Made by a program: the position numbers and the translations under genes. Positions 1 through 15,746 of a DNA stretch of 18,993 nt are shown piece by piece (position 1 is the first letter of the stretch; every line of letters starts with the position of its first letter). The stretch is from the IMG/VR virus record IMGVR_UViG_2534681765_000010; one strand, 5' to 3'. The notes beneath the pieces were generated by a model. That model was not told where the DNA came from and made no database searches. It was given only the letters and a program-made list of their open reading frames with translations. The stretch comes from a virus (taxonomy: Duplodnaviria > Heunggongvirae > Uroviricota > Caudoviricetes).

Positions 1-175
1 TATCAATGATTTTCTGGTGCGTACCGGGTTGAGAAGCGGTGTAAGTGAACTGCAGTTGCCATGTTTTACGGCAGTGAGAGCAGAGATAGCGCTGATGTCC
101 GGCGGTGCTTTTGCCGTTACGCACCACCCCGTCAGTAGCTGAACAGGAGGGACAGCTGATAGAAACAGAAGCCAC
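1..175 (-). CDS. insA: IS1 InsA, N-terminal portion (cut by window edge)
   Basis: GTG start at 173-175 (rc); minus-strand translation [58 protein letters not shown] with a CxxC...CxxC zinc-finger pattern typical of InsA. Confidence 0.8.
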
Positions 176-230
176 TGGAGCACCTCAAAAACACCATCAT
201 ACACTAAATCAGTAAGTTGGCAGCATCACC
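1..230 (-). mobile_element. IS1 insertion sequence, partial (left-end ~230 bp; rest lies beyond window start)
   Basis: Reverse complement of 208-230 is ggtgatgctgccaacttactgat, which I recognise as the IS1 terminal inverted repeat; it is followed on the minus strand by the insA reading frame. Recognised from memory, not database-searched. Confidence 0.85.
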
Positions 231-583
231 CCGTTCATCATCTGCCACCAACACTGATGGCGCAGTGGTATTTTGGTGATGCCAGCAGCAAATTCCGTCC
301 TTACGTTGGGGCAGGTATTAACTACACCACCTTCTTTGATAATGGATTTAACGATCATGGCAAAGAGGCAGGGCTTTCCGATCTCAGTCTGAAAGATTCC
401 TGGGGAGCTGCCGGGCAGGTGGGGGTTGATTATCTGATTAACCGTGACTGGTTGGTTAACATGTCAGTGTGGTACATGGATATCGATACCACAGCCAGCT
501 ATAAATCTAACGGAACACCCGTGAAAGACGCGGTACGACTGGATCCGTGGGTGTTTATGTTCTCTGCCGGGTACCGCTTTTAA
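231..583 (+). pseudogene. ompW: ompW (outer membrane protein W), 3' portion only; 5' part displaced by the IS1 insertion
   Basis: Frame ending at taa 581-583 translates ...VHHLPPTLMAQWYFGDASSKFRPYVGAGINYTTFFDNG...DPWVFMFSAGYRF, matching the OmpW C-terminal half as I recall it. Upstream of 231 the same frame reads IS1 sequence and hits a stop at 140-142, so no OmpW N-terminus is present here. Confidence 0.8.
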
Positions 584-588
584 TTTTC

Positions 589-622
589 TCTGCAAAACCT
601 CTGCAAAACTCTTCTGCAAAAC
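589..622. repeat. Three direct repeats of tctgcaaaac (589-598, 600-609, 613-622) between ompW stop and integrase stop
   Basis: Read directly from sequence; the position next to the integrase 3' end fits integrase arm-type or att-associated sites. Confidence 0.6.
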
Positions 623-646
623 TGGTCGTCAAATGACCAGTTTTTT
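622..646. terminator. Rho-independent terminator hairpin (ctggtc-gtcaaat-gaccag + tttttt), likely terminating ompW; overlaps the integrase stop codon
   Basis: Perfect 6-bp stem 622-627 / 635-640 followed by a T-run 641-646 on the plus strand. Confidence 0.6.
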
Positions 647-1759
647 CCACTCCTTACCACGTGCATCGTTGTAAATATCGGTCATTTTTTGATTCGAATG
701 GCCAAGCAAAATTTGGGTGTCGATCCCTTGCTCCCTGAACAAACGCTCCGACAATGATCGCTGTTCATGGAAAGAGGGTGGGGTACCATTAGCGCACCAG
801 TTGTAATCTACAGAGTCCCGCGCTTTTTTAAATGCAACTGTTAACGTTGCTGGCTTAACCATCCCGCCGCGCTTGGCTGTCCCTTTCGCATGATGGTGGT
901 GCAATAGCCACGGACTAAGAACGCAATCGCGACAGGATGACGCCACATCATCCAGGGTGAGATTTAATTTATTGCAACGCAGAGCAAGAGGGATGGCAAT
1001 CCGGGTTCCTGTTTTTTGCTGTTCGACATGAAGATAACCATCCCGGATATCCGAAAATTGCATTTTGCAAATATCTGAAAGGCGCTGGCCTGTCATCAGT
1101 GCCAGCAGCATGCCGCGCTGTAAAAAGTAACCATCCTTTTCCGCTGCGTTATAAATCATCATCCACTCATCAAAAGTCAGTCGCTGCCTTGATATCCGCA
1201 CCTGCGGTTTTTTTGCCGATTCTGCAGGGTTAAAGCCTGGCGGAACATCGCCTGTTTGCTGGGCTTCCCGGAAAACATCGATCAGTACCTTCCTGAAAAT
1301 TTGTCCCATTCTGTTATGTCCTCTGGCCTTGTACTCTTCCAGCACCGATACCACATCTTTTACGGTTATGGCATCTAACGGTCTGGTGCCAAAACGTTCA
1401 TCAAATACCCTGAGAGGGGCCGCTTTTTGTTTCAGCGTGTTGAGTTTGATCTCTCCGTTTTCATATCTTTCCTGTTGAATTTTTCTGTAATTATTCAGAA
1501 AAATGGAAACGGTTGATGAACCGCCGGTATCATTAATAATTTTCTCCTGCAGACTGAGCATTTGTTTCATTTGCTGCCTGGCAAGACGGCTGTTCGCTTC
1601 TGCTGCAATAGTTTCTGCCAGTTTCTGGTCAATACTGCCGAGACCGTGATTTTTGCCTGTTATGGGATGCCTGTAACGCCAGTAAACTTTGTTATTTCTT
1701 TTGTCAAAATACGGAGATAATCCCGGAACATCAGTTTTATATTTTCGCGGGCGCGCCAT
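629..1759 (-). CDS. int: Phage integrase, tyrosine recombinase family
   Basis: 376-aa ORF; R-box-like TGQRLSDI and C-terminal LLGHSNQKMTDIYND with the catalytic Tyr; sits at the prophage end next to the att-like region and overlaps the xis start. Confidence 0.9.
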   Translation of the reverse strand: MARPRKYKTDVPGLSPYFDKRNNKVYWRYRHPITGKNHGLGSIDQKLAETIAAEANSRLARQQMKQMLSLQEKIINDTGGSSTVSIFLNNYRKIQQERYENGEIKLNTLKQKAAPLRVFDERFGTRPLDAITVKDVVSVLEEYKARGHNRMGQIFRKVLIDVFREAQQTGDVPPGFNPAESAKKPQVRISRQRLTFDEWMMIYNAAEKDGYFLQRGMLLALMTGQRLSDICKMQFSDIRDGYLHVEQQKTGTRIAIPLALRCNKLNLTLDDVASSCRDCVLSPWLLHHHHAKGTAKRGGMVKPATLTVAFKKARDSVDYNWCANGTPPSFHEQRSLSERLFREQGIDTQILLGHSNQKMTDIYNDARGKEWKKLVI

Positions 1760-1985
1760 CTTCCAGTATCCTCTTCAAGGCTGGGTGATCTGTAGCGATC
1801 ACCTCCGGCTTGTTTACCATTCCGACAAAGCGAGCTCGCGGATCCACTCGCCAGTGTCTCCCAACTTTTTTGGGAAGAGGAAATATCATTCCGGCTTTAG
1901 CGTATTTACTTAACGTGCCCGGAGTAGGGACCGGATCGCTGAATTCCTCTTTTGCCCACTCAGTGAGCAGAATAAGTCTTGCCAT
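1737..1985 (-). CDS. xis: Excisionase-like small DNA-binding protein
   Basis: 82-aa ORF directly upstream of and overlapping int by 23 nt; N-terminal MARLILLTEWAKEEFSDPVPTPGTLSKYAKAG resembles lambdoid Xis proteins. Confidence 0.7.
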   Translation of the reverse strand: MARLILLTEWAKEEFSDPVPTPGTLSKYAKAGMIFPLPKKVGRHWRVDPRARFVGMVNKPEVIATDHPALKRILEDGAPAKI

Positions 1986-2049
1986 GAGCGTCGTTCGCTA
2001 ATCATGGTCGTCGCCACTATAGCTGGTGGGCGACGACCGGGGTTGAACA

Positions 2050-2829
2050 TTAAAAATCAGCCTGACTCGGGATCAGTTTTTGCCAGATAGCTGAAACGTA
2101 TTTTGCCTGGTAACGGGCGTCATCAAGTGCATTATGGCGCTCACCTTCGAATGGAATAGCCGTTCTGGCATCGAAGCCTATGGCTTTCCCCAGCTCAACG
2201 ATTGTGCGTACATCGCGATCGTTGTAGTAACGCCACGGGCAGGGGATCCCCTGCCGTTCGTATGAACGGCGCAAAATCGTGTTGTCGAAGTTGGCTCCAT
2301 TTCCCCAGACCTGAACAAAAAATTCACCGGAGTTTTCGTCGATAAATTCCCGCAATTGTAACAGTGCATCATCTAACGGGATTTCATCGGTCATAATGGC
2401 AGATTGCGCTTCGCGTGATTGCTTAAGCCACCATTTAATGGTGTCCCGATCAATGACTCCGCCAGCAGTTTCCAGATCGATAGTCTTACTAAATTCCGGT
2501 CCCATATCTCCGGTTTGCGGATCGAAAAATATTGCACCTATTGAGATAATCGGGGCATCGGGATTTTTTCCCATGGTTTCAAGGTCGATCATCAGATGAA
2601 TCCCCGCTCTGCTGGTGGATGTGAGATTATGATGACCGTTTGCCTTAATTAAGGGATCTGACGCCTCGCCAGTTTCACTATCGCTGGCATGATGCTGATT
2701 GCCGCCAGTGTTCTCCTTGTGCTGATGCGCAGTGCCTTCCATTTCCTCCGGATCATTTTCCTGAACTTCAGGCTGATTCTCTCCATCGAATATTTCCTGG
2801 TATGTTGCGTCCCCATCACCGCACCACAA
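2050..2829 (-). CDS. Protein with C-terminal DEDD-type 3'-5' exonuclease-like domain; acidic low-complexity N-terminus, possibly frameshifted from the upstream ORF
   Basis: 259-aa ORF with TTG start; motifs [11 protein letters not shown] ... VWGNGANFD ... [10 protein letters not shown] resemble the three Exo motifs of DnaQ-like exonucleases. Confidence 0.55.
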
Positions 2830-3547
2830 TCAGGGCAGTTGCCGCCACCGCTCTGACCGCAGGCGGTGCAGATCTTTTCCGGTTCCTGTTGCCTACTGGT
2901 TCAGGTTGTTTCGTTTCTGGCTCGTTTTGTTGCGTATTTGGGCTGTTTTGTTCCGCTTTCTGGTCGTTCTGTTCCGTTTCTTGCTGGTTCTGGTTCACAG
3001 AATCGCGGGTTTCAATCCCCTTCACCCATTTCGGATCATTCGGGTCGCTAATCCCTTCAATAAATTCACCACGTGATGCAGCAAGCAACTTATCGGCGTC
3101 AGGCTGGCTGATATTGGCTGCCTGCATAATTTTGTTTACTTCGTCAGCGGTAACTTTTACCGGTTCTGGCTGTGCGGTCGTGTCAGATGCACCAGTATTT
3201 TGTTGTGAACCTGAGCATGTACTGTTTTTGCGGGCGAAATATTCTTCTTTCGTGATTTCAGTAGCCCCGGCAGCCAGCGCCTTATCCAGACCAGAAAGTT
3301 TGTTTGCGCGACCGTATTTTTCGCCATCCTTGTCGGTGAAGAGGAAGTAGAACGGCCCCTCACGCTCTACAGATGGTTCGACTTCCACTTTGCATTCGGT
3401 TTTTTCGTTGTCCGGAATTGCCGTTTCCACTGCATCAGTTTCTGGTACTGGCGACGAGAGAGTATCAGTTGCGCTCTGATTTGTTCCTTCATCTTCAAAC
3501 ACGCCCTTTGTAGTCAGGTATTCAGTAATGTATTTGTTCAGTGCCAC
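2816..3547 (-). CDS. Hypothetical early-left protein, Gln/Glu-rich C-terminus; C-terminal end probably out of frame
   Basis: 243-aa ORF with GTG start; overlaps the downstream exonuclease-domain ORF by 14 nt; a third frame in the overlap zone encodes a zinc-ribbon-like [17 protein letters not shown]. Confidence 0.45.
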
Positions 3548-4530
3548 AGGTCTTTGTGAATGTCGATCGGACGTTCACGACAAGGCCAAAAATAGTCTGG
3601 CGGTCGTAGCGAAGGGATCAGGCTGTTTGCGCATTGATGCCGAGATACGCTTCCAGTCTTCGCGGTCGTTGTGATAACTTCATTTTTTGCCCAGCGATGG
3701 ATGCTGCCGCAATGTTTCCGGCATCATCACCAGGCCAAGAGCGTAGGCCAGTTCTCATCCAGTGTTTTCCATGTCTGCTTGTATTCGCGATGAATGGCAG
3801 CAATGACCGGGTTGATTTTTCCTGTTGAATTTTCAGTGTCTGTTGATTGGCTCTGGCGCGGGCGAGATCAACAACAGACGTGTATTTTCCGGTTTCCTTG
3901 CGTTCACCTTCGCGACGTTTTTTCCAGATGCGCATCTCTGCTGAATTTCGGGCCATTTGGCACCAGGCTTACATTTATGCTTAACCCACCCGATGGCATG
4001 CAGCTTAAGCTCCGGATACATGGCGTTAACTTCTGGCATTTTCATCAACGCTTCAACGATATGTCCGTCGAATGTTGCCATGTCTTCCTGCAACAATTCC
4101 TGCGCGCTAATCACCATATCAACGGTGATTTTTCACATGTGTCGAACTTAACCATGACAGCGTTCTGTACTTCAGGGGCCAGCTTGTCAAAAGTGACGTT
4201 CATCGGATCTGATTCAGTCTCAACCGGGACAAAGGAAGCAGACTCCTCATCCCAGCGGTTTTCCTGCATATATTCAGCATCCCAGGAATCGAGGGCAGGG
4301 CGGGGTATACCGGGTTTATCCTCGCAAACAAGAAATTTATAAGCGCAGTCCTGAGCAGCCGGATAATGTTCCAGGAATTGCCAGTGAAATTTTGCGCGGG
4401 CGCGACGTTCATCACCGGCTTCAATGGCAGTGGCTACAGTGACGGCACCTTCTTCCTTTATTGCCTGTTCGTCCGGAATGGCGGCGCAAATAAAGACTGA
4501 TCTTACCCAGCAATAGTGGACACGCGGCTA
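3548..4530 (-). other. Fragmented early-left coding region: protein-like reading frames that switch frame at homopolymer runs and lack start codons (decayed genes or indel errors)
   Basis: Frame ending at 4111 reads ...FHWQFLEHYPAAQDCAYKFLVCEDKPGIPRPALDSWDAEYMQENRW... with no ATG/GTG/TTG start back to the in-frame stop; ORFs 3833-4117 and 3618-3956 overlap by about 120 nt in different frames. Confidence 0.3.
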
Positions 4531-4587
4531 AGTGAGTAAACTCTCAGTCAGAGGTGACTGGCATATAAAAATGAAACCGGATATTAA

Positions 4588-4800
4588 TTACGGTGCTGTT
4601 TTAAGTCCTGCCGGGATTTCGTTATTATCCATGTGAATAACTTTATCGACCGGATAACAGTTACCGGGAATTTTCTGTTCCACTGCGGCAACCATGCATT
4701 CTTTCATTGAGCCGTATACGCCAGTAACCATGTCAACCGGTTCACCGGAAACAAGAAAAACCGTCAGAACAAGTGCAAATGTAGTATTCATTGCCAGCAT
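4588..4800 (-). CDS. Small hypothetical protein with N-terminal hydrophobic (signal-like) segment
   Basis: Internal ATGs at 4798-4800 and 4789-4791 (rc) preceded by aagga; MNTTFALVLTVFLVSGEPVD... The longer track ORF (to 4845) probably over-extends. Confidence 0.4.
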   Translation of the reverse strand: MLAMNTTFALVLTVFLVSGEPVDMVTGVYGSMKECMVAAVEQKIPGNCYPVDKVIHMDNNEIPAGLKTAP

Positions 4801-4994
4801 CCTTTTTGCATCAGGCGTAAACGGGCCAGCATTGAAACAATGCATATTTTATCCAATAGCTCCCGTTCTTGTTTCCTCTTGTTAATGGCATCTTCAGTAA
4901 ATACTGGGTTACTGATAGTGACACCAATTTCAAAACAACCTTCAGACGTATTAACGTTTGGTAATAACGTTTTCATTATCGCACCCTCAACAAT

Positions 4995-5140
4995 GAATTT
5001 TGTGATGCGGTGCCTGGTGCCTCCAGGTGACGTTAACCAGTTAACAATTAACGCCGGATACAGAGAACCCATCCATAACACTGTTTTTGGTTTTAACTGT
5101 TCCGCGTGCGCTCAGCCGCATTCACCGCATCACAAAATTC
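4995..5140. repeat. Perfect 18-bp inverted repeat gaattttgtgatgcggtg (4995-5012) / caccgcatcacaaaattc (5123-5140) flanking a 110-bp palindrome-rich spacer
   Basis: Read directly; spacer contains gttaaccagttaac and cctggtgcctccagg. Confidence 0.7.
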
Positions 5141-5538
5141 ACTTTAAAAAGGGCAGCAGAGCAGTCACGGAGTAAAACTGATACCACCAAACGTCACCAG
5201 AAAATTGATAACAGAGGGCGTTGCAGCGGGGTTGTCACTTAAGCGTATGGTCAACCTGGCAACCCGGTGTCTCAATGGGGGAGGAATAACCCCGCCATAC
5301 TTACCGCCGCGCCATTTCGCGGAGTGCCACAACCGGAAGCGCACGGTCGAATTAAATTTAACGACACCGTACAGTGAGACGAACTTCGCCGTGCGCTTTC
5401 GCGTTATGCCCTGGCTTTTCAGGGATATATCCTTTCAGTAAACTGTCAGTACCGGATTCTTATCCGTGTCCGGCGCACGACCACACGTGGCAGCGTGTTG
5501 GTCTCCATTTTTAACCCAGAACCTCAATGGAGGATAAA

Positions 5539-5748
5539 ATGCCAAACAAAAAAAGAAATCCGCTTATTGAAAAACAGATTGAATGCCTGGTAAATCAACT
5601 CAGGCAATCAGGGTTATTAAAAACTCATTCAGAGTTGAGGCTCACAGAATCAGCATTCGACGATAAATTAAATAATGTCCTTTATAATGGCATTATTGAT
5701 TTTAATCGTTCAGTTGGTCGCCTCGGCCCTGCTGGTGTTTCCTTATAA
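5539..5748 (+). CDS. Small hypothetical protein (69 aa), AT-rich, abuts the convergent 216-aa gene stop-to-stop
   Basis: ggagg RBS 7 nt upstream of ATG 5539; MPNKKRNPLIEKQIECLVNQLRQSGLL... Confidence 0.45.
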   Translation: MPNKKRNPLIEKQIECLVNQLRQSGLLKTHSELRLTESAFDDKLNNVLYNGIIDFNRSVGRLGPAGVSL

Positions 5749-6399
5749 TTACCAGTCAATCCAGAGCGGACCGTGTTCAGCGTAAATATAACTGTACACA
5801 TCCAGATTATATTTGTGGTCTGTTAAGAACAGGCCGCAAATACATGCCGAAGCTTCCAGGGCAGCGGCTCTGTTACTGAATAACCATGTGGCAACATTCC
5901 AGCGTTTTTCTGCATCCCAGTCTTTCTCAAGGCCTGATACCATGAAGAAACCGTTAGTGTTGCCATCAAATAATTCTGTTTCCAGATTTTTAAGCAATGC
6001 CTGATGGACTCTTGCCAGGTATTCCGCCGGAATTTCGCCACGAATTCTGATGAGATTGTCATAAACAAACATGTTCCCCGCATATGGCGATTTTTCTTTC
6101 TTGTTTTTTAAACCAGCATCATGAGCAAACTGATCAATTTCTTCTTCCGTTGGTTTCGTATTGATGTTTTGCGCTGTCGTTTCTGCAATTTTATTTGCCA
6201 CACTATCTGAGTCGTGTTTATTTACAGACGCACAGAAATACAATCCGGTAAACGCATCGCGCACATTACGAGCCATATTATCAGTGTCTTTTTTCGTTAC
6301 CGATTCCAATGCAAGTTCGTTCAGACGATGACGAAGTGTGTGTGCTGCAATCTCCTGGATTGAAGTAGGTAAATCTTTAAATTCCATCGTCAACCTCAT
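5749..6399 (-). CDS. Hypothetical 216-aa soluble protein, second gene of a small operon downstream of the repressor gene (rex-slot cargo)
   Basis: Long ORF with codon-like composition; start overlaps the upstream small ORF stop (TGATG); alternative start MEFKDL with a gagg RBS. Confidence 0.6.
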   Translation of the reverse strand: MRLTMEFKDLPTSIQEIAAHTLRHRLNELALESVTKKDTDNMARNVRDAFTGLYFCASVNKHDSDSVANKIAETTAQNINTKPTEEEIDQFAHDAGLKNKKEKSPYAGNMFVYDNLIRIRGEIPAEYLARVHQALLKNLETELFDGNTNGFFMVSGLEKDWDAEKRWNVATWLFSNRAAALEASACICGLFLTDHKYNLDVYSYIYAEHGPLWIDW

Positions 6400-6632
6400 C
6401 AGTCAGAGTTTCTTGCTAACCAGCGATGCGCGCCAGCTTCGGTTTTAAACGTTTTGCTTTTGGTATACGTCATCGCGGTGAACGTGCCGTCCTGGTTGGG
6501 AAACACGCCGCACACCAGAGATTCGTTGTTGCCAAGATCGATAGTATCCATGTTGACCTCATTTCCCCTTAACGCCGGGGTAGCGGAACAAAAACCTGCT
6601 GCATAGTTATTAAAGTTGAACCCTGCCGTCAT
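6399..6632 (-). CDS. Small hypothetical protein (77 aa, or 50 aa from internal start at 6551)
   Basis: ORF translationally coupled to the 216-aa gene; internal start MDTIDLG has a good gagg RBS. Confidence 0.4.
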   Translation of the reverse strand: MTAGFNFNNYAAGFCSATPALRGNEVNMDTIDLGNNESLVCGVFPNQDGTFTAMTYTKSKTFKTEAGAHRWLARNSD

Positions 6633-6843
6633 GTTCTTACGCCTCGGGCTGGCTACTTAACCCCTGACCACTGCCGGGTAACTCGAAGTATTGCCCTGCA
6701 TTCTGTGGGGTGGAGTGAGGGAATGAATGAGGTTTAGAAAAATGAACTTTACAGGTCAATGTTTTTTTATCAAAACATTTTAAGCAGGCAGCTGTTAAGC
6801 CATCACCACGATGGCATACAGTTAATCAAATAGATGAGGTTGG

Positions 6844-7482
6844 TTAAATATCTTGTTGAATTTTAAAGCATACGCCCAATATGCAAGATAGATCATCCAG
6901 CATAATTGAAGGGTAGCGAGGATTCGTGGGGACTAAAAGAATATCCGGCCCTTCTATCTCCAGTTTACGAATGACAGGTGTTGTGGTCCCTTTGGGTAAG
7001 GCAAGGACAATATTTCCTGGTTGTACGGTTCGATCGGGATCAACAAAAACTGTTGAACCATTTGGGATGGAAACTCCCCCACCAGATGTTGACATACTGT
7101 CACTCTCTAGAACAACTGCAAAGGTATTGGCCGGGATTTCTCCGACAAGCTGCACACAAGAGGTTATTGAGGAATTTTTCATATAATCACTCCAGCTTGC
7201 TGCCTGCTGAAGTGATAGTAGCGGAACCGTTTTTATCGGCGGTAAAGATAGATCAAGCGAATCACCTGTATTTAACTCTCCTCCATTAAGAAGCCAATTT
7301 TCGTTTACTTTCAATATCTTTGCCAGTGAACTTATGTAACGCGAGGACGGCGCTCCTCCACCGTTCATCCATTGACTTACGGAGCCTTTTGATGCGCCAG
7401 TGGCATTGACAAGGTCTTTGCCTTTCAGGTTTAGCGCATGCATACGTTGGGTTATGCGTTCAGATATTGTTTGCTTGCTCAT
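6844..7482 (-). CDS. cI: CI-like prophage repressor (N-terminal HTH, C-terminal LexA/S24-like autocleavage domain)
   Basis: 212 aa; N-terminal LNLKGKDLVNATGASKGSVSQWMNG helix-turn-helix; C-terminal Ser (VLESDSMS) and Lys (VIRKLE) consistent with an S24 Ser-Lys dyad; divergent from the Cro-like gene across an operator-like intergenic region. Confidence 0.85.
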   Translation of the reverse strand: MSKQTISERITQRMHALNLKGKDLVNATGASKGSVSQWMNGGGAPSSRYISSLAKILKVNENWLLNGGELNTGDSLDLSLPPIKTVPLLSLQQAASWSDYMKNSSITSCVQLVGEIPANTFAVVLESDSMSTSGGGVSIPNGSTVFVDPDRTVQPGNIVLALPKGTTTPVIRKLEIEGPDILLVPTNPRYPSIMLDDLSCILGVCFKIQQDI

Positions 7483-7544
7483 GTTTTGATTTTAAAACAC
7501 AGATGGTTTTGTTTCTTGACTTTCTTTGGTTTTGATTATTAAAC
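7483..7544. promoter_or_regulatory. Immunity-region operator/promoter: two 16-bp sites gttttgattttaaaac (7483-7498) and gttttgattattaaac (7529-7544) with a ttgact -35-like hexamer at 7516-7521
   Basis: Repeated partially palindromic sites between divergent repressor and Cro-like genes, read directly. Confidence 0.5.
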
Positions 7545-7573
7545 TTTTGGCGTTCAGTTTTATGGAGCGACTC

Positions 7574-7804
7574 ATGAAAAAATCAGAAGTATTAGGCTAT
7601 TTTGGCGGAGTTGTTAAAACAGCCGCAGTTCTAGGAACGTCAAAAACCACAGTCAGCATGTGGGGGGAAGAGGTTCCGTGGAAATGGGCGTTGCTAATTC
7701 AGGCAGTCACTGCCGGGGCGCTCAAATATGAGTTACACATACCGACGGTTGTCATTCCCGGTTCTGATCATAATCCGCCTTCTAACCAAGGGGGGGATTC
7801 ATGA
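7574..7804 (+). CDS. Cro-like / YdaS-family HTH protein
   Basis: ATG 7574 with ggag RBS; MKKSEVLGYFGGVVKTAAVLGTSKTTVSMW... HTH; divergent from the repressor; stop overlaps the next start (ATGA). Confidence 0.7.
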   Translation: MKKSEVLGYFGGVVKTAAVLGTSKTTVSMWGEEVPWKWALLIQAVTAGALKYELHIPTVVIPGSDHNPPSNQGGDS

Positions 7805-8226
7805 AAATCAAGCATGAACACATCCGCATGGCGATGAATGCCTGGGCGCGTCCTGATGGCGAAAAAGTTCCAGCAGCTGGAATAACCCAGGCTTATTTTG
7901 AGTTGGGTATGACGTTCCCAGAACTGTATGACGACAGCCATCCGGAAGCCCTGGCTCGCAATACCCAGAAAATTTTCCGCTGGATAGAGAAAGACACCCC
8001 TGATGCAGTTGAAAAAATTCAGGCGTTGTTACCAGCGATCGAAAAGGCAATGCCACCTTTGCTGGTGGCCAGAATGCGCAGCCACAGTTCAGCTTATTTT
8101 CGGGAGCTGGTGGAGACGCGGGAGCGACTGGTGAGAGACGCTGATGATTTTGTCGCAGTGGCAATCGCCGGTTTCAATCAGATGAACCGTGGTGGCCCGG
8201 CAGGAAATGCTGTGGCAGTGCATTGA
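7801..8226 (+). CDS. YdaT-like (CII-analogue) regulatory protein
   Basis: 141 aa beginning MKIKHEHI, as I recall for Rac prophage YdaT; immediately follows the Cro-like gene. Confidence 0.65.
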   Translation: MKIKHEHIRMAMNAWARPDGEKVPAAGITQAYFELGMTFPELYDDSHPEALARNTQKIFRWIEKDTPDAVEKIQALLPAIEKAMPPLLVARMRSHSSAYFRELVETRERLVRDADDFVAVAIAGFNQMNRGGPAGNAVAVH

Positions 8227-8297
8227 GTGATAATAGCCATATCGAATCACTTCCGGCAACTCGTGAGTAAAAAGATTCGGTATCAGAAGAGGTGAGT

Positions 8298-9368
8298 ATG
8301 GCTAACGCCTGGCTCAGATTATGGCATGACATGCCAAATGACCCTAAGTGGCGAACAATTGCCAGGGTGTCAGGGCAGTCAATTGCAACAGTGATGGCAG
8401 TGTATATCCACCTCCTGGTGAGCGCGTCACGAAATGTCACGCGAGGTCACATTGATGTCACGACAGAAGATTTGGCAAGTGCGCTCGACGTGACAGAAGA
8501 GGTAATTGATTCAATTTTGCAGACGATGCAGGGGCGGGTACTTGATGGTGATTTAATCACTGGATGGGAAAAACGCCAGGTGCTTAAAGAGGACAACGGC
8601 AATATTTCGCAAACCGCAAAATCTCCTGCAGAGCGCAAGAGGGCGCAGCGAGAGAGGGAAAGAAAGCGGGAACAAAATGGCGATTGTCACGGCGCGTCAC
8701 GAAATGTCACGCACATGTCACGACGAGTCACGACAGATAAAGATACAGATAAAGATACAGATCAAGAAGATCAAAACACTATGGTCCATGGCGTAAAAAA
8801 CGCCACGAACCAGGCAGGGGATGTTCAGACCGTCAATCTTGGTCAGCCAGCAGGCACGACACCGGAAGCCGATTCAGCGTATGCGCTGAAAGCCGATTCG
8901 GGCGCTGTGCAGCAGGTGATGACCGCAAGGCCGGAGCAATCACACCAACTGCAGCAGCCTGAAGCCGATTCCGCCATTCAGCGGGAAGCCGATCGGGTAG
9001 TCACGGAAAACACCGGGCAGCCTGTGAGACGAGTGGATTATCCGGATGTGTTCGAACAGGTCTGGCGGGAATACCCGTTGCGTGCTGGGGCAAACCCGAA
9101 GAAATCCGCTTTCAGTGCCTGGAAGGCCAGATTACGCGAGGGGGTGTCACCAGAGGCCATGCTGGATGGCGTGAGGCGTTACGCAAGATACCTTGCGGCT
9201 ACCGGGAAAACGGGAACGGAATTTGTTCAGCGAGCGACGACGTTTTTTGGACCGGACCGGAATTTTGAAAACCCCTGGCTGCTCCCGGTAAGCGGCACGA
9301 ACAACCAGCGTTGTGTGAATCATATTTCTGAACCGGATACCGAAATTCCACCGGGCTTCAGGGGGTAA
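8298..9368 (+). CDS. Replication initiator protein (lambda O-like in function) with origin-like iterons inside the gene
   Basis: 357 codons from ATG 8298 (gaggtgag RBS; track start is an upstream GTG at 8292); position after cro/cII-like genes; two clusters of 10-bp-phased gtcac repeats plus an AT-rich tandem repeat within the ORF. Confidence 0.65.
   Translation: MANAWLRLWHDMPNDPKWRTIARVSGQSIATVMAVYIHLLVSASRNVTRGHIDVTTEDLASALDVTEEVIDSILQTMQGRVLDGDLITGWEKRQVLKEDNGNISQTAKSPAERKRAQRERERKREQNGDCHGASRNVTHMSRRVTTDKDTDKDTDQEDQNTMVHGVKNATNQAGDVQTVNLGQPAGTTPEADSAYALKADSGAVQQVMTARPEQSHQLQQPEADSAIQREADRVVTENTGQPVRRVDYPDVFEQVWREYPLRAGANPKKSAFSAWKARLREGVSPEAMLDGVRRYARYLAATGKTGTEFVQRATTFFGPDRNFENPWLLPVSGTNNQRCVNHISEPDTEIPPGFRG
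8422..8461. repeat. Iteron cluster 1: four gtcac motifs phased at 10-11 bp (8426, 8436, 8446, 8457)
   Basis: Read directly; contains the 21-bp unit gcgcgtcacgaaatgtcacgc (8422-8442), repeated exactly at 8692-8712. Confidence 0.65.
8686..8759. repeat. Iteron cluster 2: five gtcac motifs phased at 10-11 bp (8686-8731), then 12-bp AT-rich tandem repeat gataaagataca x2 (8736-8759)
   Basis: Read directly; iterons followed by an AT-rich tract is the classic layout of a lambdoid ori inside the initiator gene. Confidence 0.65.
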
Positions 9369-9408
9369 GTGTTGATTTCTGGTCATGAGGTAATTTTCAG
9401 GAGGACTT

Positions 9409-9831
9409 GTGGCAAAAGTTTTTACACAAGAAGAGCGGGAAAAAATTAAAGGGCAGGTTGTTGAACTCGTACGCCAGAGTGGGCGCGAGACGTTACGACA
9501 ACTGGAAACTAAAACTGGGGCAACAAGATATCTGATGAGCGTTCTGGCCAGAGAGCTGGTTGCCAGTGGCGATGTATACAACTCTGGTTACGGGTTATTC
9601 CCGTCTGAACAGGCGCGTAAGGACTGGCAAAATGCCCGTAAAAAGCTCTCAAGGGCAAAGCTGAAGAAACCATCTGCGGTTGATCCGGACCTTATCTGGT
9701 CATTACCTGACGGAGAAATACGTCGCTACGACAGGCGTCAGAACATAATCTGTCGCGAGTGCCGGAAGAGTGAGGTTATGCAGCGAGTGCTGGCGTTTTA
9801 TCAGGGTAATTTTCAGGAGGTGATGGCGTGA
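9409..9831 (+). CDS. Hypothetical protein (140 aa), possible DNA-binding / replication accessory
   Basis: GTG start 9409 preceded by the 16-bp RBS module ggtaattttcaggagg; sits between the initiator gene and the DUF4406-like gene. Confidence 0.5.
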   Translation: MAKVFTQEEREKIKGQVVELVRQSGRETLRQLETKTGATRYLMSVLARELVASGDVYNSGYGLFPSEQARKDWQNARKKLSRAKLKKPSAVDPDLIWSLPDGEIRRYDRRQNIICRECRKSEVMQRVLAFYQGNFQEVMA

Positions 9832-10123
9832 GAGTGAGAGTCTATATCGCCGGTCCAATGACCGGGTATAAAAATTTCAACCGTGAGGCGTTTCACAATG
9901 CGGAAGAGGAACTGAAACGGGAAGGGCATACCGTTTTAAATCCGGCTGTGCTTCCGGATGGGCTGACACAGCCGCACTACATGGATATTGCATGGCAATG
10001 ATTCGTTGTGTGGATGCGATTTACATGCTGAAAGGCTGGCAGCGGTCAGCAGGTGCTAAGGCAGAACTGGCGCTGGCGGAGAAACTGGGGCATGCAGTTA
10101 TTTTCCAGGAGGAGGTACAGTGA
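9828..10123 (+). pseudogene. DUF4406-like (nucleoside 2-deoxyribosyltransferase-like) gene split by a -1 frameshift near 9996-10001
   Basis: Part 1 (9828-10001) VRVYIAGPMTGYKNFNREAFHNAEEELKREGHTVLNPAVLPDGLTQPHYMDIAWQ; part 2 (9998-10123) MIRCVDAIYMLKGWQRSAGAKAELALAEKLGHAVIFQEEVQ. Joined they follow the DUF4406 pattern as I recall it; caa-tga looks like caa-atg minus one A. Confidence 0.55.
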
Positions 10124-10395
10124 ATATCGACGCAACAATGACGATTGGTACGGCCCTCAATACGGGGCTGGCGCTTCTTGGTTGGTGCTACATCATGTTC
10201 TGCTCATGGCGGTGGCTGTCACTGATGTTACTGAAAGAATGGAATAAACGCTGTAAACAGACGCAGCGGCAGAAGGCAATGAATGCGTTTTTTGAGACCT
10301 TCGATATTGACAGTATAGAACCAGGAGAGCCAGCTCGCGTGATTAGCAGAGGTGACGTTGTAATTCTTGTATACCGGAGTGAAGAGAAAGCATAA
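10120..10395 (+). CDS. Small hypothetical membrane protein (91 aa)
   Basis: GTG start overlapping the upstream stop; hydrophobic stretch LALLGWCYIMFCSWRWLSLMLL. Confidence 0.4.
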   Translation: MNIDATMTIGTALNTGLALLGWCYIMFCSWRWLSLMLLKEWNKRCKQTQRQKAMNAFFETFDIDSIEPGEPARVISRGDVVILVYRSEEKA

Positions 10396-10509
10396 TCCAA
10401 ATCTGAATAATTAAATCCAGCACTGTAAATAAAATTTAATCCTTAACCGGAGGGATTTCTGCACCCTCAGAACATCAGGAGGCCGCCCGAAAGGGCGGTG
10501 GAGATAATA

Positions 10510-11034
10510 ATGGAAATAACTAAAGAACGATTATTGGAAATAGCAAATCTTAGTGAAAGGGCATTAAGTGATGGGAGGATTATTTCTCCTGATGCTTATG
10601 AATCAGTTACAAGTATAGAAATAATAACGATGGCCAGGATGCTTCTTGGTTGCCTCAAAAAAGAATATAAAAAAAAGGTGGATAGCAATGCTAATATATA
10701 TGATATTTTGGACAGTTGGGGGGCTTGGGCTGCAGCTGGAAATAGTTCTATCAACTGGCAGCAAGTGGCTGATAAATATAAAGATGTAGTACCTCATGGT
10801 AAGAAATTACGCCGTCAGTGTGGCAACGATGAAGGTCGTATGATTGATACCTGCATGTTGAAGCTTAAACAATATAGAATAGATGACTATGAGTTAATTA
10901 TCGCTCATTTTGTTATAGGTATATCTTTGCGTACAATAGCACGAAGGTACAAATGTTCAGATGGAACAATAAGAAAGAATATACAACTTACAATGGGAGT
11001 ATTGTTAGGATTGTCTTTTTATGTGCAATTATAG
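10510..11034 (+). CDS. Antiterminator Q-like protein (Q933-type fold suspected) with N-terminal extension; first gene of the AT-rich island
   Basis: ATG 10510 with ggag RBS; motifs LDSWGAWAAAG, RRQCGNDEGRMIDTCMLKLK and CSDGTIRKNIQ resemble the Stx-phage Q family as I recall it; AT-rich codon usage. Confidence 0.45.
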   Translation: MEITKERLLEIANLSERALSDGRIISPDAYESVTSIEIITMARMLLGCLKKEYKKKVDSNANIYDILDSWGAWAAAGNSSINWQQVADKYKDVVPHGKKLRRQCGNDEGRMIDTCMLKLKQYRIDDYELIIAHFVIGISLRTIARRYKCSDGTIRKNIQLTMGVLLGLSFYVQL

Positions 11035-11039
11035 ATATA

Positions 11040-11519
11040 TCACATGAGCCTTGTTATGTCCTTTAGACGCGACCAGGTAGTATAAAATTTTTTAAATGTA
11101 ATAAGCAGGAAAAAAATTCCCACTTGGAGTAATAGTTGGGCATATGTGTGCTCGTCGGCATCTTTTACTAGTGGGAATTTAAACTTTAGTGTATCAGGGA
11201 AAAATAATAAAATGATAAAAATAATACAAACTGATAGTAACCATCCCATAGTGGAGTGCATTTCTTCGGTCAGTTTTTTCAAATAACCAGTTTTTCCTAT
11301 ATTTCTAATTAGCGTATTATCTCTAGCTGAAGCAATCAAGGTAAGCGAACCTAAAACAAAGCCAAATAATATCCCAGAAAATGTAGAAACGGCCGAAGCG
11401 ATTGGCTGAATTTGTGCAAAATTTAGCTTTGCAGAAAGAGGCCATGCGATGATACAAAAAACAACAGAGGCTAAATTATAACCATAACTGTACAAAGTTA
11501 TCAATTTCCCCTTTTTCAT
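11040..11519 (-). CDS. Small integral membrane protein (159 aa, about 4 predicted TM helices); distal gene of a two-gene operon
   Basis: Four hydrophobic segments (LASVVFCIIAWPL; VSTFSGILFGFVLGSLTLIASA; MGWLLSVCIIFIILLFF; LLLQVGIFFLLITF); starts 16 nt downstream of the 304-aa gene; strongly AT-rich. Confidence 0.7.
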   Translation of the reverse strand: MKKGKLITLYSYGYNLASVVFCIIAWPLSAKLNFAQIQPIASAVSTFSGILFGFVLGSLTLIASARDNTLIRNIGKTGYLKKLTEEMHSTMGWLLSVCIIFIILLFFPDTLKFKFPLVKDADEHTYAQLLLQVGIFFLLITFKKFYTTWSRLKDITRLM

Positions 11520-11534
11520 ACCATCGCTCCAAAA

Positions 11535-12449
11535 TTAATCAACTCTTTGATTGGCTACTCCAAAGTATGCCTTCAATTCATCATCTTTACTATCTTTTGC
11601 AAGAGTTAAGGCGCTCCAAATGCTGCCAACTAATGGATACCTACCTCCAAGTTCAACATCTGTGTAGTAGACTAATTTGTCTGCTACAAGATCGATAGGA
11701 TGCTGTACACCGGTCTCAATGTCTTGGGTTTCTAGTTTAAGTTTTTCAACCTCAAAAGTCTCTAGTGTTTCTTTAAAGGCTCTTTTTAGTTGAGAACCTA
11801 GATAGCGAGATTCAGGATCTTCAGAACGACTATCCCCACGTAATGTAAGATTTACTTTGGCAGAATTAGTACCATTTAGAGTGGCTATCAATGCATTGTT
11901 GAAGTTATGTTCAACATCCTCATATAGTTGCACATTCTTTGGCCGAGCGATACCGATTTCTAGAGTTTTGATTCGAACTTCATTACGCATCAACCACTTT
12001 AAACTACTGGTCTGAATGATGGGATTAACAGTTGTATTTTGTGAACTGTTGGAAAGATATTTACTTAATAGCACCCAGCCATAACAGAGTCTGTTTCGTT
12101 GAATTATTAAAACTGAGTCTTGGGTATAAAAATGAAAATAAGCTTTTTCTAATAAGTTTTCATTGATTTCAAGTTTAATTTCTCTTTCTTCACCTCCGGC
12201 TACAGCAACATGAGGGAGATTATTGGTTCTGTGTTTTCCTATAACTCCCCTGAAACCATAGTCGGTTCTTTCCATGAAGCGCATTTCAACTAGTTTATTT
12301 CCTATTTTACGTACAGTTTTGTCTCGGCCTTCGCTGTATGACTCAAAAATTTTTGAAAAAACAGCTTCAGGTGAATTAACTCCTGCATTTGTATCAGTGC
12401 TTATAGTGTGACATTGATAAAAATCGAAGAAAAAGCGCTTGCTAGCCAT
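11535..12449 (-). CDS. Hypothetical 304-aa cytoplasmic protein; promoter-proximal gene of the two-gene operon (candidate sensor of an abortive-infection pair)
   Basis: Long uninterrupted ORF, AT-rich; no Walker A or other motif I recognise; preceded by a ~390-bp AT-rich promoter-like region (12450-12840). Confidence 0.7.
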   Translation of the reverse strand: MASKRFFFDFYQCHTISTDTNAGVNSPEAVFSKIFESYSEGRDKTVRKIGNKLVEMRFMERTDYGFRGVIGKHRTNNLPHVAVAGGEEREIKLEINENLLEKAYFHFYTQDSVLIIQRNRLCYGWVLLSKYLSNSSQNTTVNPIIQTSSLKWLMRNEVRIKTLEIGIARPKNVQLYEDVEHNFNNALIATLNGTNSAKVNLTLRGDSRSEDPESRYLGSQLKRAFKETLETFEVEKLKLETQDIETGVQHPIDLVADKLVYYTDVELGGRYPLVGSIWSALTLAKDSKDDELKAYFGVANQRVD

Positions 12450-12897
12450 TGCAAAAATTTCCTGTAAAAAATAATTACATACTTAAGATACTACAAAGAA
12501 TAATGCGTACGCAAAATTTTTTGTTGAGTAGAATATGTTCGCGGGGTATTTTTCGTTAAGATATAATTACCATGGTAACTTTTGCGTTGGTAATGCATTA
12601 TGTGGTGGAGAAAAAGAGAGAGTCTTATCTTTAAATTATCGCCAGCCTATATGACTATATGAGTAGTATTTAGATGGGAAATTGTTGAGTTATTGAAAGG
12701 AACCATAACCTTTATGTAAAATTACTGCGGGTGCTTGAGGTTATCTGTCTCAGGCATGCCACCAAAAGGCAGATAGAGAAAAGCCCCAGTTAACGTTACG
12801 CGTCCTGCAAGACGTTTAACATTAATCTGAGGCTCAATCTATGAACGGCAAATCTAGGTTAGCCTCTTACGTGCCGAAAGGCAAGGAGAAGCAGGCT

Positions 12898-13053
12898 ATG
12901 AAGCAGCAAAAGGCGATGTTAATCGCCCTGATCGTCATCTGTTTAACCGTCATAGTGACGGCACTGGTAACGAGGAAAGACCTCTGCGAGGTACGAATCC
13001 GAACCGGCCAGACGGAGGTCGCTGTCTTCACAGCTTACGAACCTGAGGAGTAA
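12898..13053 (+). CDS. hokD: Hok/Gef-family type I toxin (51 aa), HokD/RelF-like
   Basis: MKQQKAMLIALIVICLTVIVTALVTRKDLCEVRIRTGQTEVAVFTAYEPEE: single TM helix then the conserved RKxLCE..R....EVA.F.AYE Hok pattern; aaggag RBS 10 nt upstream. The track ORF start at 12841 is an in-frame extension that is probably not translated. Confidence 0.7.
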   Translation: MKQQKAMLIALIVICLTVIVTALVTRKDLCEVRIRTGQTEVAVFTAYEPEE

Positions 13054-13121
13054 GAGACCAGGTGAGGGAGAAATCCCTCGCCACCTCTGATGAGTCAGGC
13101 ATCCTCAACGCACCCGCACTT

Positions 13122-13148
13122 AACCCGCTTCGGCGGGTTTTGTTTTTT
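13122..13148 (+). terminator. Rho-independent terminator (aacccgc-ttcg-gcgggtt + T-run) downstream of hok
   Basis: Perfect 7-bp GC-rich stem, 4-nt loop, then tgtttttt; read directly. Confidence 0.65.
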
Positions 13149-13220
13149 CCTGGCATTCTGGTTTACAATTCGCACGCCAGCCTGAACAACTGGCACCTGC
13201 TGCGCCAGCAGAGACAACCG

Positions 13221-13493
13221 ATGGCGCACAAAACCAAATTTCACAATTCTGATACCGCCCTTGCCATCCGGCATGGGCGGCGTTCACACGCATTTAAAAC
13301 CGACTGGTACCAACACCCACCATGTACTGAAGAACAGGCCGAATGGCTAATTCATAACTACCGCAGACGCGGATACGAGATTAAGAAAGCCCTCAGCCTC
13401 GATTATCGTCACTGGATAATCTATGTCAGGCTCCCTTATTCCGAACGCCCACCGCGTCCGTCCCGCACATTCCAGCAACGCATCTGGAGGTAA
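13221..13493 (+). CDS. Hypothetical protein (90 aa), Rem-like by position (between hok and the DUF968 gene, as in Qin prophage)
   Basis: ATG 13221 lies downstream of the terminator; the track ORF from 13062 runs through the terminator and is probably over-extended; stop taa 13491-13493 immediately precedes the next gene start. Confidence 0.35.
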   Translation: MAHKTKFHNSDTALAIRHGRRSHAFKTDWYQHPPCTEEQAEWLIHNYRRRGYEIKKALSLDYRHWIIYVRLPYSERPPRPSRTFQQRIWR

Positions 13494-13494
13494 C

Positions 13495-14544
13495 GTGCGG
13501 GTATTACTTCGACCTGTTCCGGTACCGGAACTTGGGCTGGTGGTGCTAAAACCGGGCCGTGAATCCATGCAGGTATTTCATAACCCTCGAGTTCTGGTGG
13601 AGCCGGAACCGAAAAGCATGCATGGTCTGCCGTCCGGAGTCGTTCCTGCTGTTCGCCAGCCGCTGGCGGAGGATAAATCATTACTGCCATTTTTCAGCGA
13701 TGAGCGGGTGATTCGTGCTGCTGGTGGTGCTGGTGCATTGTCTGACTGGCTGTTACGCCACGTTAAATCCTGCCAGTGGCCTCATGGTGACTATCATCAC
13801 AGTGAAACCGTTATTCACCGTTATGGTACTGGCGCAATGGTGTTGTGCTGGTACTGCGACAACCAGCTGCGTGACCAGACTTCTGAATCACTCGGGCAGC
13901 TTGCTCACCAAAACCTGTCAGCATGGATGATTGATGTCATCCGCCACGCAATGAATGGCACGCAGGAGCGGGAATTATCGCTGGCTGAATTATCCTGGTG
14001 GGCGGTCTGCAATCAGGTGGCGGACGCGCTACCAGAGGCAGCATTACGTCGTTCTCTGGGGTTACGTGCGGAAAAAATTCGCTCAGTATACCGCGAGAGC
14101 GACATCGTGCCGGGAGAGCAGACCGCCACCAGCATGCTGAAGCAGCGCACAAAAAATCTTGCGCCGCTGCCTCACGCCCACCAGCAACAGAACCCACCAC
14201 AGGAAAAGACGGTGGTCAGCATTGCCGTTGATCCTGAGTCTCCGGAATCTTTCATGAAACGACCTAAACGTCGCCGCTGGGTTAACGAGAAATACACACG
14301 CTGGGTGAAGACACAGCCGTGTGCGTGTTGTGGTAAGCCAGCCGACGATCCCCATCACCTGATTGGTCATGGTCAGGGCGGAATGGGGACAAAATCTCAC
14401 GATATTTTCACGCTACCGCTGTGTCGGGGGCATCACAACGAGCTTCATGCGGATCCGCTGGCGTTCGAAGAAAAGCATGGTTCTCAGGTTGATTTAATTT
14501 TTCGTTTTCTTGATCACGCCTTTGCAACTGGCGTGCTTGGGTAA
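13495..14544 (+). CDS. DUF968-like prophage protein with C-terminal Cys/His-rich (HNH-like) motif
   Basis: GTG 13495 after a ggagg RBS (alternative ATG 13567; track start 13423 overlaps the upstream gene); C-terminal CACCGKPADDPHHLIGHGQGGMGTKSHDIFTLPLCRGHHNELH. Confidence 0.6.
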   Translation: MRVLLRPVPVPELGLVVLKPGRESMQVFHNPRVLVEPEPKSMHGLPSGVVPAVRQPLAEDKSLLPFFSDERVIRAAGGAGALSDWLLRHVKSCQWPHGDYHHSETVIHRYGTGAMVLCWYCDNQLRDQTSESLGQLAHQNLSAWMIDVIRHAMNGTQERELSLAELSWWAVCNQVADALPEAALRRSLGLRAEKIRSVYRESDIVPGEQTATSMLKQRTKNLAPLPHAHQQQNPPQEKTVVSIAVDPESPESFMKRPKRRRWVNEKYTRWVKTQPCACCGKPADDPHHLIGHGQGGMGTKSHDIFTLPLCRGHHNELHADPLAFEEKHGSQVDLIFRFLDHAFATGVLG

Positions 14545-14556
14545 AAGAGGTGACTG

Positions 14557-14916
14557 ATGCTCATAGATTTGGTTTTACCTTACCCGCCGACGGTGAACAC
14601 TTACTGGCGACGCCGTGGCAGCACATATTTTATCTCGGAGGAGGGAAAGCGTTATCGCCGGGCTGTGGCGCTTATTGTTCGCCAGCAGCGGCTGAAATTA
14701 AACCTGTCCGGAAGGCTGGCGATAAAGGTGATTGCAGAGCCACCGGATAAACGTCGTCGTGACCTGGACAATATCCTGAAAGCACCACTGGATGCACTGA
14801 CACATGCGGGGTTGCTTATCGACGACGAGCAGTTTGATGAAATTAATATTGTGCGCGGTCAGCTTGTTCCTGGTGGGCGGTTGGGGATAAAAATCACAGA
14901 ACTGGAGTGCGCATGA
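14557..14916 (+). CDS. rusA: RusA Holliday-junction resolvase
   Basis: 119 aa; LPYPPTVNTYWRRRG ... DKRRRDLDNILKAPLDAL ... GGRLGIKITEL matches RusA motifs including the catalytic Asp cluster as I recall them. Confidence 0.85.
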   Translation: MLIDLVLPYPPTVNTYWRRRGSTYFISEEGKRYRRAVALIVRQQRLKLNLSGRLAIKVIAEPPDKRRRDLDNILKAPLDALTHAGLLIDDEQFDEINIVRGQLVPGGRLGIKITELECA

Positions 14917-15602: not shown

Positions 15603-15649
15603 ATCGCATACATTTTATGTAAATGTGATATTTTGCCGTATAGTGTGTA

Positions 15650-15674
15650 AACCCGCTTAAATGCGGGTTTTTTG
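15650..15674 (+). terminator. Rho-independent terminator (aacccgc-ttaaat-gcgggtt + tttttt) after the Q-like gene
   Basis: Perfect 7-bp stem with the same stem sequence as the hok terminator at 13122-13139, then a T-run; read directly. Confidence 0.75.
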
Positions 15675-15703
15675 CTTAACTCTGTGGACCTTTTTATCTG
15701 TAG

Positions 15704-15728
15704 TTGTAAGATATGGATATTCTTACAA
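15704..15728. promoter_or_regulatory. Perfect palindromic operator-like site ttgtaaga-N9-tcttacaa about 20 bp upstream of the kinase start
   Basis: 8-bp inverted repeat arms (15704-15711 / 15721-15728), read directly; sits between the upstream terminator and the kinase RBS. Confidence 0.55.
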
Positions 15729-15746
15729 TTTAGGTCGGTGAGCTTA

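Follow-up and report, generated by a model that had tools for sequence, protein, structure and literature searches.

Probable independent entry of a PPompW-type prophage and of IS1 into one ompW gene of Escherichia coli

How did a single gene for an outer-membrane protein, ompW, come to lie between an insertion sequence and a prophage, and which of the two elements put it out of use? The locus takes up the first 646 positions of the window, i.e. the whole stretch of 18,993 nucleotides that was analysed here. The initial annotation described ompW as hit twice, by IS1 within the gene and by a prophage integrated at its 3′ end. All sequence features that it named were found at the coordinates it gave, although the hairpin and bases 493-583 were wrongly assigned to the host gene. 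We consider it very probable that two independent and unrelated mobile-element events took place in this gene, namely an integration of the PPompW type and, later, an insertion of IS1. As regards function only the IS1 hit stands, since the open reading frame stays at 212 amino acids after integration of the prophage.

The start of the window falls inside IS1, and only the IRL-proximal 230 bp of the 768-bp element are present (positions 1..230, minus strand). They are identical to positions 6001-6230 of region L001 of E. coli E1739, which bears out the assignment of 1-230 to IS1. The 23-bp terminal inverted repeat IRL is located at 208-230 (reverse complement GGTGATGCTGCCAACTTACTGAT), with a promoter-like site at 223-196(-) within IRL. 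The N-terminus of InsA is encoded at 2-175(-), where the translation matches the Pfam domain Zn_ribbon_InsA (PF03811, E=7e-22) as well as the start of HTH_Tnp_IS1. RefSeq annotates an IS1 family transposase with programmed frameshift at this site, and the InsA/InsAB′ transposase with programmed -1 frameshift that is typical of IS1 is thus found in the Pfam domains and the RefSeq annotation together. In E1739 the complete element measures 768 bp and is bounded by imperfect terminal inverted repeats, which match in 16 of the first 23 end positions, 13 of them consecutive.

Specifically, the first nine bases after IS1 (231..239, ompW nt 287-295) are the right copy of a 9-bp target-site duplication, CCGTTCATC. 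In E1739 this motif flanks both ends of IS1 as a perfect repeat (L001 5454-5462 and 6231-6239; the second copy is window 231-239). The same motif occurs once in the O6:H16 strain 2014EL-1346-6, whose flanks show 100% identity and whose ompW of 639 nt is unbroken, so that the empty site is available for comparison. The other end of IS1, the target duplication and the 5′ part of ompW, which were to be sought upstream of the window, were all found in E1739; they are read from a strain that is possibly the window's own and do not amount to independent confirmation. A 120-nt probe across the junction between IS1 and ompW was recovered as one piece from one of 5,426 complete E. coli genomes. On this sequence evidence the presence of IS1 in ompW nt 287-295 reads as a genuine and simple transposition. 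It is both recent and inactivating, because sister strains with identical flanks keep an intact ompW.

What remains of ompW to the right of IS1 begins at 231, directly at the inverted repeat, as had been proposed. The host-derived fragment (231..492, plus strand) corresponds to ompW nt 287-548 or codons about 96-183 and is 100% identical to ompW of K-12 MG1655. The translation of 230-583 matches positions 81-195 of the 195 positions of the Pfam OmpW profile (PF03922, E=1e-53); it has neither start codon nor signal peptide and is not a full-length member of the OmpW family. IS1 separates this 3′ piece (231-583) from the promoter, the start codon and the signal peptide. The 5′ fragment in E1739 encodes 98 OmpW residues followed by R and ends after 99 residues (MKK...ATVHR-stop), and RefSeq already marks the 3′ piece in E1739 as a pseudo-CDS 'missing N-terminus'. 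Together with the full IS1, the 9-bp duplication and the empty site in the sister strains, these data uphold the view that ompW is insertionally inactivated: IS1 interrupts the gene exactly at 230/231, and OmpW would not be made. Our literature search for IS1 in ompW found no specific report.

The remainder of the window is lambdoid prophage DNA (493..18993) according to the E1739 annotation, blastn, Pfam and ARAGORN. It encodes an exonuclease, dicB, a CI-like repressor, replication genes, DUF968, RusA and Q, and furthermore a kinase/phosphatase pair, a methyltransferase and a tRNA. Over window 1-2040 every base agrees with the E1739 chromosome (NZ_CM180506.1), and for bases 1-1800 one complete RefSeq E. 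coli chromosome, that of E1739 (diarrhoeal stool, Bangladesh), matches end to end at 100%. In a search with the whole window no complete genome covered at least 80% of it in one place. By blastn, 1-2040 belongs to the E1739 ompW prophage, 2041-14245 to the E1739 potC prophage (98.9% identity) and 13122-18993 to the ompW prophage again (99.85% identity), and the interior 2041-13122 does not match the ompW prophage.

The two E1739 prophages are about 96% alike within window 2810-4129, and this part of the window carries 15 single-base deletions, ten of which fall on columns where the prophages differ (3.8% expected, p=1.5e-11). These deletions break an exonuclease gene of 2,472 nt, which is intact in E1739, into several open reading frames. 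In 4560-14188 no indels were seen in the comparison with the E1739 prophages. The interior therefore looks like a consensus of mixed reads from two paralogous prophages, judged by this pattern, and the assembly quality of the source is a matter of concern. As the origin of the mosaic we also considered that the two E1739 prophages, which are co-oriented, had undergone deletion or gene conversion with each other; this was set aside, because the deletions coincide with the paralogue differences. A 61-bp block at 4508-4569 matches the left end of IS3 in kind; it stands in place of some 60 bp of phage DNA, with the start codon of the exonuclease among them, and its junction was found in no complete genome. 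The last base of the window coincides with the 3′ end of a tRNA (18918-18993, anticodon CAT, ARAGORN), beyond which the two E1739 prophages diverge. The frameshifts of the interior call for caution against a biological reading. Region 1-646 is unaffected by these signs of assembly and is error-free relative to E1739.

If a contig had been joined to, or had ended in, one of many repeated IS1 copies, the boundary between IS1 and ompW would be an assembly artefact. The window does start inside IS1, where assembled contigs frequently break off, at least 40 places in E1739 match IS1, and the mixed consensus of the interior points in the same direction. However, the finished E1739 chromosome has the 768-bp element between perfect 9-bp repeats of an ompW motif that is single in the sister strains. 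A false join would not be expected to produce this, because a complete IS1 with a perfect 9-bp repeat is the signature of real transposition, and we regard an artefact as very unlikely.

For the prophage junction, K-12 ompW, which is free of prophage and is followed by yciE, served as attB reference. The lysogen and K-12 are identical over ompW nt 1-548 and then differ at 29 positions in the last 91 nt, i.e. identity is 100% through window 492 and about 68% beyond, and past the ompW stop codon the two sequences are unrelated. The break thus falls after window 492. Immediately before it, at 464..492, lies the att core of attL, TCAGTGTGGTACATGGATATCGATACCAC, as defined by a four-way alignment of attP, attR, attL and attB. 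All 29 bp of the core are common to the attL of the window, the attR of E1739 and the attB of K-12. With the attP of Escherichia phage 204576 (CP025907), which comes from an ETEC isolate, 28 bp (465-492) are shared, the first base being different. The E1739 attR is located about 23.9 kb downstream and consists of phage DNA, TCAGTGTGGTACATGGATATCGATACCAC, a native K-12-type ompW end, a K-12-type terminator and yciE. In the attP of phage 204576 a P arm, which is homologous to the arm of the E1739 attR, is followed by the core, a phage ompW-like end, three CTGCAAAAC repeats, a hairpin and int, and on the left side of the core there is no similarity to ompW.

The four sequences consequently fit attB as B-O-B′ (K-12), attP as P-O-P′ (204576), attL as B-O-P′ and attR as P-O-B′, and, as in lambda-type integration, attL and attR share their core with attB and attP while their arms are reciprocal. 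From the alignment of the four att sites, the crossover region is window 464/465-492. This comparison with an uninterrupted ompW places the core inside the coding sequence, in codons 174-183 and 89-117 nt upstream of the stop codon, and not, as the initial annotation had it, over the ompW terminator. That the prophage is integrated at ompW is corroborated by the shared core and by the presence of int and xis. Window DNA from 493 rightward is phage DNA throughout, comprising the last 30 codons of ompW, the repeats, the hairpin, int and xis.

The alignment also bears on two other readings of the frame at 231-583. If the whole frame and the hairpin behind it were host ompW, the attachment site would lie at the extreme 3′ end of the gene and its terminator; the integrase stop codon in the hairpin directly after the open reading frame, and the full length and unbroken phase of that frame, would agree with this. 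Identity to K-12 nevertheless drops from 100% to about 68% after 492, the K-12 terminator is unrelated, and a native ompW end is found behind the same core at the E1739 attR, about 24 kb away. With the phage attP bearing its own ompW-like 3′ end, repeats and hairpin, the four-way alignment refutes this reading, which we hold to be extremely improbable. Conversely, the whole frame could be a partial copy carried by the phage, with the real host ompW elsewhere, a case that the initial annotation had named as contrary to its own interpretation. This is correct for 493-583 and incorrect for 231-492, which is K-12 ompW and which in E1739 is contiguous across IS1 with the 5′ half of ompW and a conserved yciC neighbourhood. 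Moreover, the attP of phage 204576 lacks similarity to ompW left of the core, and the only other piece of ompW in the E1739 region is the 126-nt remnant at attR. There is hardly any probability left for a frame that is phage-borne as a whole, and we proceed with a frame that is host DNA up to 492 and phage DNA from there on.

The phage-borne 3′ end of ompW (493..583, plus strand) starts with the third base of codon 183 and runs through codons 184-212 to the stop codon at 581-583. The resulting chimeric OmpW has 212 amino acids and is 96% identical to K-12 OmpW. All eight amino-acid changes relative to K-12 fall within residues 185-196. Each of the seven codon changes in codons 197-212 is synonymous, which argues that the phage copy is kept functional by purifying selection. 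The uninterrupted allele of the sister strains encodes 212 amino acids, covers Pfam OmpW profile positions 1-195 and ends in YRF, and thus shows the full-length profile, signal peptide and C-terminal aromatic residue of the OmpW family. The chimeric protein also matches the solved OmpW structures 2F1T and 2MHL, and RefSeq describes ompW as intact in the prophage-carrying genomes listed in the genome comparison. Because the open reading frame stays at 212 amino acids and is called intact by RefSeq, integration alone leaves a full-length OmpW, and IS1 is the sole inactivating hit.

As to the order of events, three strains (2014EL-1346-6, LR883050 and E1316) have the same prophage end, with 100% identity over window 231-1800, and an uninterrupted ompW. 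Since sister strains share the prophage end without IS1, the prophage came first and IS1 second. In a first step, Int would have recombined the 28-29-bp sequence common to attP and ompW codons 174-183 (window 464-492), and the phage would have brought its own diverged last 30 ompW codons and its own putative terminator next to int, leaving the lysogen with a 212-aa OmpW. In a second and later step, which concerns one ETEC-like lineage with strain E1739 as its representative, IS1 would have entered codons 96-99 with a 9-bp duplication. Two fragments of the gene would have resulted, of which the 5′ one stops after 99 residues and the 3′ one lacks both promoter and signal peptide. The reverse order, in which the phage entered an already dead gene, is conceivable inasmuch as integration needs the 29-bp core alone, which is intact in the 3′ fragment. 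The three strains with prophage end and uninterrupted ompW are, by contrast, most economically explained by the prophage having arrived first, and an earlier IS1 seems highly improbable to us.

Between the core and int we identified three direct repeats of CTGCAAAAC at 590-598, 601-609 and 614-622 (plus strand). These are the motif's three matches in the window, where 0.29 would be expected. Another copy is located in the P arm of the E1739 attR and likewise of the phage 204576 attP, at a distance of about 120 bp from the core on its left side, and the repeats and the hairpin are kept in other ompW lysogens (O157, O104, O55). Following the layout of lambda, the repeats are candidate arm-type binding sites of the integrase on the P′ arm.

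The hairpin itself (618..646) pairs 618-629 with 633-644 over 12 bp and carries a T-run at 641-646, the first four U residues of which are paired in the predicted stem. Its predicted fold has -16.6 kcal/mol (z = -4.4 versus shuffles). A simple scan with a consensus terminator did not have 618-646 among its listed sites. The hairpin probably ends the transcript of the chimeric ompW, as predicted from its structure. It had been taken for the ompW terminator of the host; it is absent from K-12, where a different hairpin follows ompW, and is phage-encoded. The integrase gene does end inside it, as had been observed, with the stop codon (629-631, minus strand) at the top of the hairpin.

The integrase (629..1759, minus strand) is a lambda-type tyrosine recombinase of 376 amino acids by Pfam and structure alignment. 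It contains the domains Arm-DNA-bind_1 (PF09003, E=4.5e-22) and Phage_integrase (PF00589, E=1.7e-16), aligns to the lambda Int structures 5j0n and 1z1b (E about 5e-55) and, compared with 5j0n, keeps all six catalytic residues R, K, H, R, H and Y. The start of int is overlapped by a gene for an excisionase of 82 amino acids (1737..1985, minus strand; Pfam Exc, E=4.4e-7), which is named 'excisionase' in RefSeq and xisE in PPompW records. Both int and xis look intact.

The part of OmpW that is supplied by the phage varies between lysogens. Alleles were read in the attP of phage 204576 and in four more lysogens, all of which have the same core, repeats and hairpin and an unaltered final strand, RLDPWVFMFSAGYRF. 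In the window, residues 185-196 read SYKSNGTPVKDA. An allele with KYKSGVTTVKDS occurs in lysogens of O157:H7, O104:H4 and O55:H7 and in phage 204576, and the phage-borne OmpW end of strain 23CRST049 is five residues longer, so that there are at least three phage-borne C-terminal alleles; the native counterpart of residues 185-196, NYKLGGAQQHDS, is uniform. The allele of the window is a rarer one, with about 41 genomes at 95% identity or more versus about 1,490 with the common allele. Sampled non-lysogens have essentially one native allele: over the conserved 3′ portion of the probe, all but one matched at 86.8% and one at 84.9%. Differences at OmpW residues 185-196 accordingly report the type of prophage and not the lineage of the host.

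The OmpW barrel has eight strands, which are joined by long loops on the extracellular side and by short turns on the periplasmic side (PMC2993939). Because in this topology the connection between strands 7 and 8 should be a surface loop, L4, we infer that the differences between alleles are confined to this last loop. One might go further and suppose that PPompW-type phages carry alternative cassettes for the last extracellular loop of OmpW (L4), which we put forward as an unlikely idea. If it were true, lysogeny would rewrite a surface epitope of a colicin receptor, a lysogenic conversion encoded in the att site, and the IS1 knock-out would reach the same outcome in another way. The literature was searched for a phage-borne OmpW C-terminus, and no specific description was found.

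With respect to the consequences for the strain, OmpW is the receptor of colicin S4, and cells with a deletion of ompW are fully resistant (PMC2649078). Loss of OmpW would by analogy be predicted to confer resistance to colicin S4 on the present strain, and resistance to any OmpW-dependent phage may also follow. The suggestion of the initial annotation that receptor availability might change seems reasonable in this light. Both events are of well-known kinds, and much was already known: ompW is a prophage hotspot, knock-outs by IS1 are routine and the pseudogene is annotated. Integration within a gene with supply of a replacement 3′ end is a textbook mechanism. The general significance of the locus is therefore little.

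Among known systems the closest are the lambda-like prophages in ompW described as 'PPompW', with an attL/R of 121 bp (Nakamura et al. 2021, PMC8112680; GenBank LC567818-LC567841). The published 121 bp correspond here to the 29-bp core and a homologous ompW end of 92 bp, and the PPompW records annotate a 'duplication due to insertion of PPompW'. The integration locus and the order ompW-int-xis-exonuclease are the same as in the window prophage. Window 400-1800 has 94.9% nucleotide identity to eleven deposited PPompW records, in which int is annotated as intE. When compared with these records, rather than with EC112648_1574 itself, the integrase exceeds the 90% identity and 90% coverage used in PMC8112680. 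The window element is a member of this published prophage family.

Differences from the PPompW prophages concern the OmpW end, which in the window prophage is a rarer allele, and the E1739 ompW prophage, a remnant of 23.9 kb that has neither lysis nor head genes. In its immunity and replication region the window in turn differs from the E1739 ompW prophage. Since the E1739 element lacks lysis and morphogenesis genes, formation of virions by it is unlikely. An ompW attL of this type was found in 1,564-1,707 of 5,426 complete E. coli genomes, the higher figure counting genomes in which a match to ompW plus int covers 80% or more of the query. In about 1,700 genomes other than E1739 the match starts no earlier than base 231 and takes in ompW, integrase and excisionase. 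The PPompW family thereby occupies about 30% of complete E. coli genomes, and for annotators this means that in such a share of genomes the final 30 codons of ompW, together with its putative terminator, are phage DNA.

The insertion of IS1 resembles other IS1 knock-outs of genes for outer-membrane proteins in its 768-bp element, 9-bp target duplication and null allele; this exact ompW allele was seen in one complete genome only. For the prophage, a parallel is provided by phage 21 and e14, which enter icd and supply a diverged duplicate 3′ end, the length of the open reading frame being kept. The within-gene strategy is the same as that of the ompW prophage, whereas the gene and the specificity of the integrase are different. 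According to Bobay et al. (2013, PMC3603311), ompW is one of the most occupied hotspots for integration within coding sequences, and these authors cite icd and ompW together as cases of such integration. With lambda Int the integrase of the window shares the N-terminal arm-binding, the core-binding and the catalytic domains, and xis lies upstream and overlaps int. The three tandem repeats take the position of P′1-P′3 of lambda, and at least one copy is found in the P arm. In contrast to lambda, with its intergenic attB, the core measures 28-29 bp and lies within a gene, and the putative arm site is CTGCAAAAC.

Our comparison revealed that the window interior (2041-13122) matches the potC-integrated prophage of Escherichia coli strain E1739 (98.9%) and not the ompW prophage of the same strain, which is matched at both window ends (1-2040 and 13122-18993). 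No complete E. coli genome was found to carry this ompW/potC/ompW arrangement in one place. The arrangement reflects either a chimeric assembly or a conversion event in which two lambdoid prophages of one host exchanged sequence. The window closes exactly at the 3′ end of a tRNA gene with anticodon CAT (18918-18993, plus strand), assigned to Met by ARAGORN and annotated on an identical gene as tRNA-Ile by RefSeq. This is also the point where the two E1739 prophages begin to differ, the next gene being tRNA-Lys in one and tRNA-Arg in the other.

Within the potC-like part, a 3′-5′ exonuclease gene (2050 to approximately 4510, minus strand) that is intact in E1739 is broken up by single-base deletions. 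We identified 15 of these between 2810 and 4129 relative to both E1739 prophages, ten of them on alignment columns that differ between the two prophages, where 3.8% would be expected (p = 1.5e-11). Judged from their placement, the deletions are most likely an artefact of a consensus built from mixed reads. Furthermore, a 61-bp block at 4508-4569 matches the left end of IS3, with 94-96% identity to annotated IS3 copies. It takes the place of roughly 60 bp of prophage sequence, among them the start codon of the exonuclease gene, and none of 5,426 complete genomes has its junction. The block could be what a deletion has left of an earlier IS3 insertion, or it could result from faulty assembly.

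A eukaryote-like Ser/Thr protein kinase gene followed by a PP2C phosphatase gene (15747-17251, plus strand; Pkinase E=2e-33, PP2C E=2e-14) lies in the prophage late region, with the gene for antiterminator Q and that for a DNA methyltransferase on either side. Two genes forming a block on the other strand (11040-12449, minus) encode a 304-aa DUF6731 protein (E=1.5e-12) and a second protein, 159 aa long, for which a Pfam search gave no match. The block is flanked by hokD and by an antiterminator-Q-family gene, a label taken from the annotation of the matching potC prophage (L005, the E1739 potC locus, 14484-15008), and its position is moron-like.

Beyond the window, the E1739 ompW prophage (493-24429 of its locus, L004) spans only about 23.9 kb, and its tRNA genes are directly followed by a partial lom, a tail-fibre gene and tail-fibre assembly genes, and then by attR. 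Since it contains no lysis, head or tail-shaft genes it is, on gene content, a defective remnant, with int and xis apparently intact.

IS1 was also encountered at other sites. In E. coli strain E1 (NZ_CP195951.1; L012, 808-1505) an IS1A copy lies between yciC and ompW, in the intergenic promoter region and some 240-300 bp upstream of ompW, which is intact and free of prophage in this strain; the copy is an independent, second and different IS1 event at this locus. In E1433 (NZ_CM180511.1; L006, 2308-3614) and E1620, IS1 lies between truncated cobB and truncated ymfA, adjoining the potC prophage, and ycfZ is absent, an arrangement that suggests a deletion associated with IS1 within the same group of ETEC strains.

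Comparison of the phage-borne OmpW C-terminus (window 493-583) with further ompW lysogens and a phage attP (L007-L011) revealed at least three alleles among ompW lysogens. Differences are confined to residues 185-196, with a 5-aa insertion in one allele, and the protein sequence of the last OmpW strand is invariant. The allele of the window is rare, occurring in about 41 genomes versus about 1,490 with the common allele.
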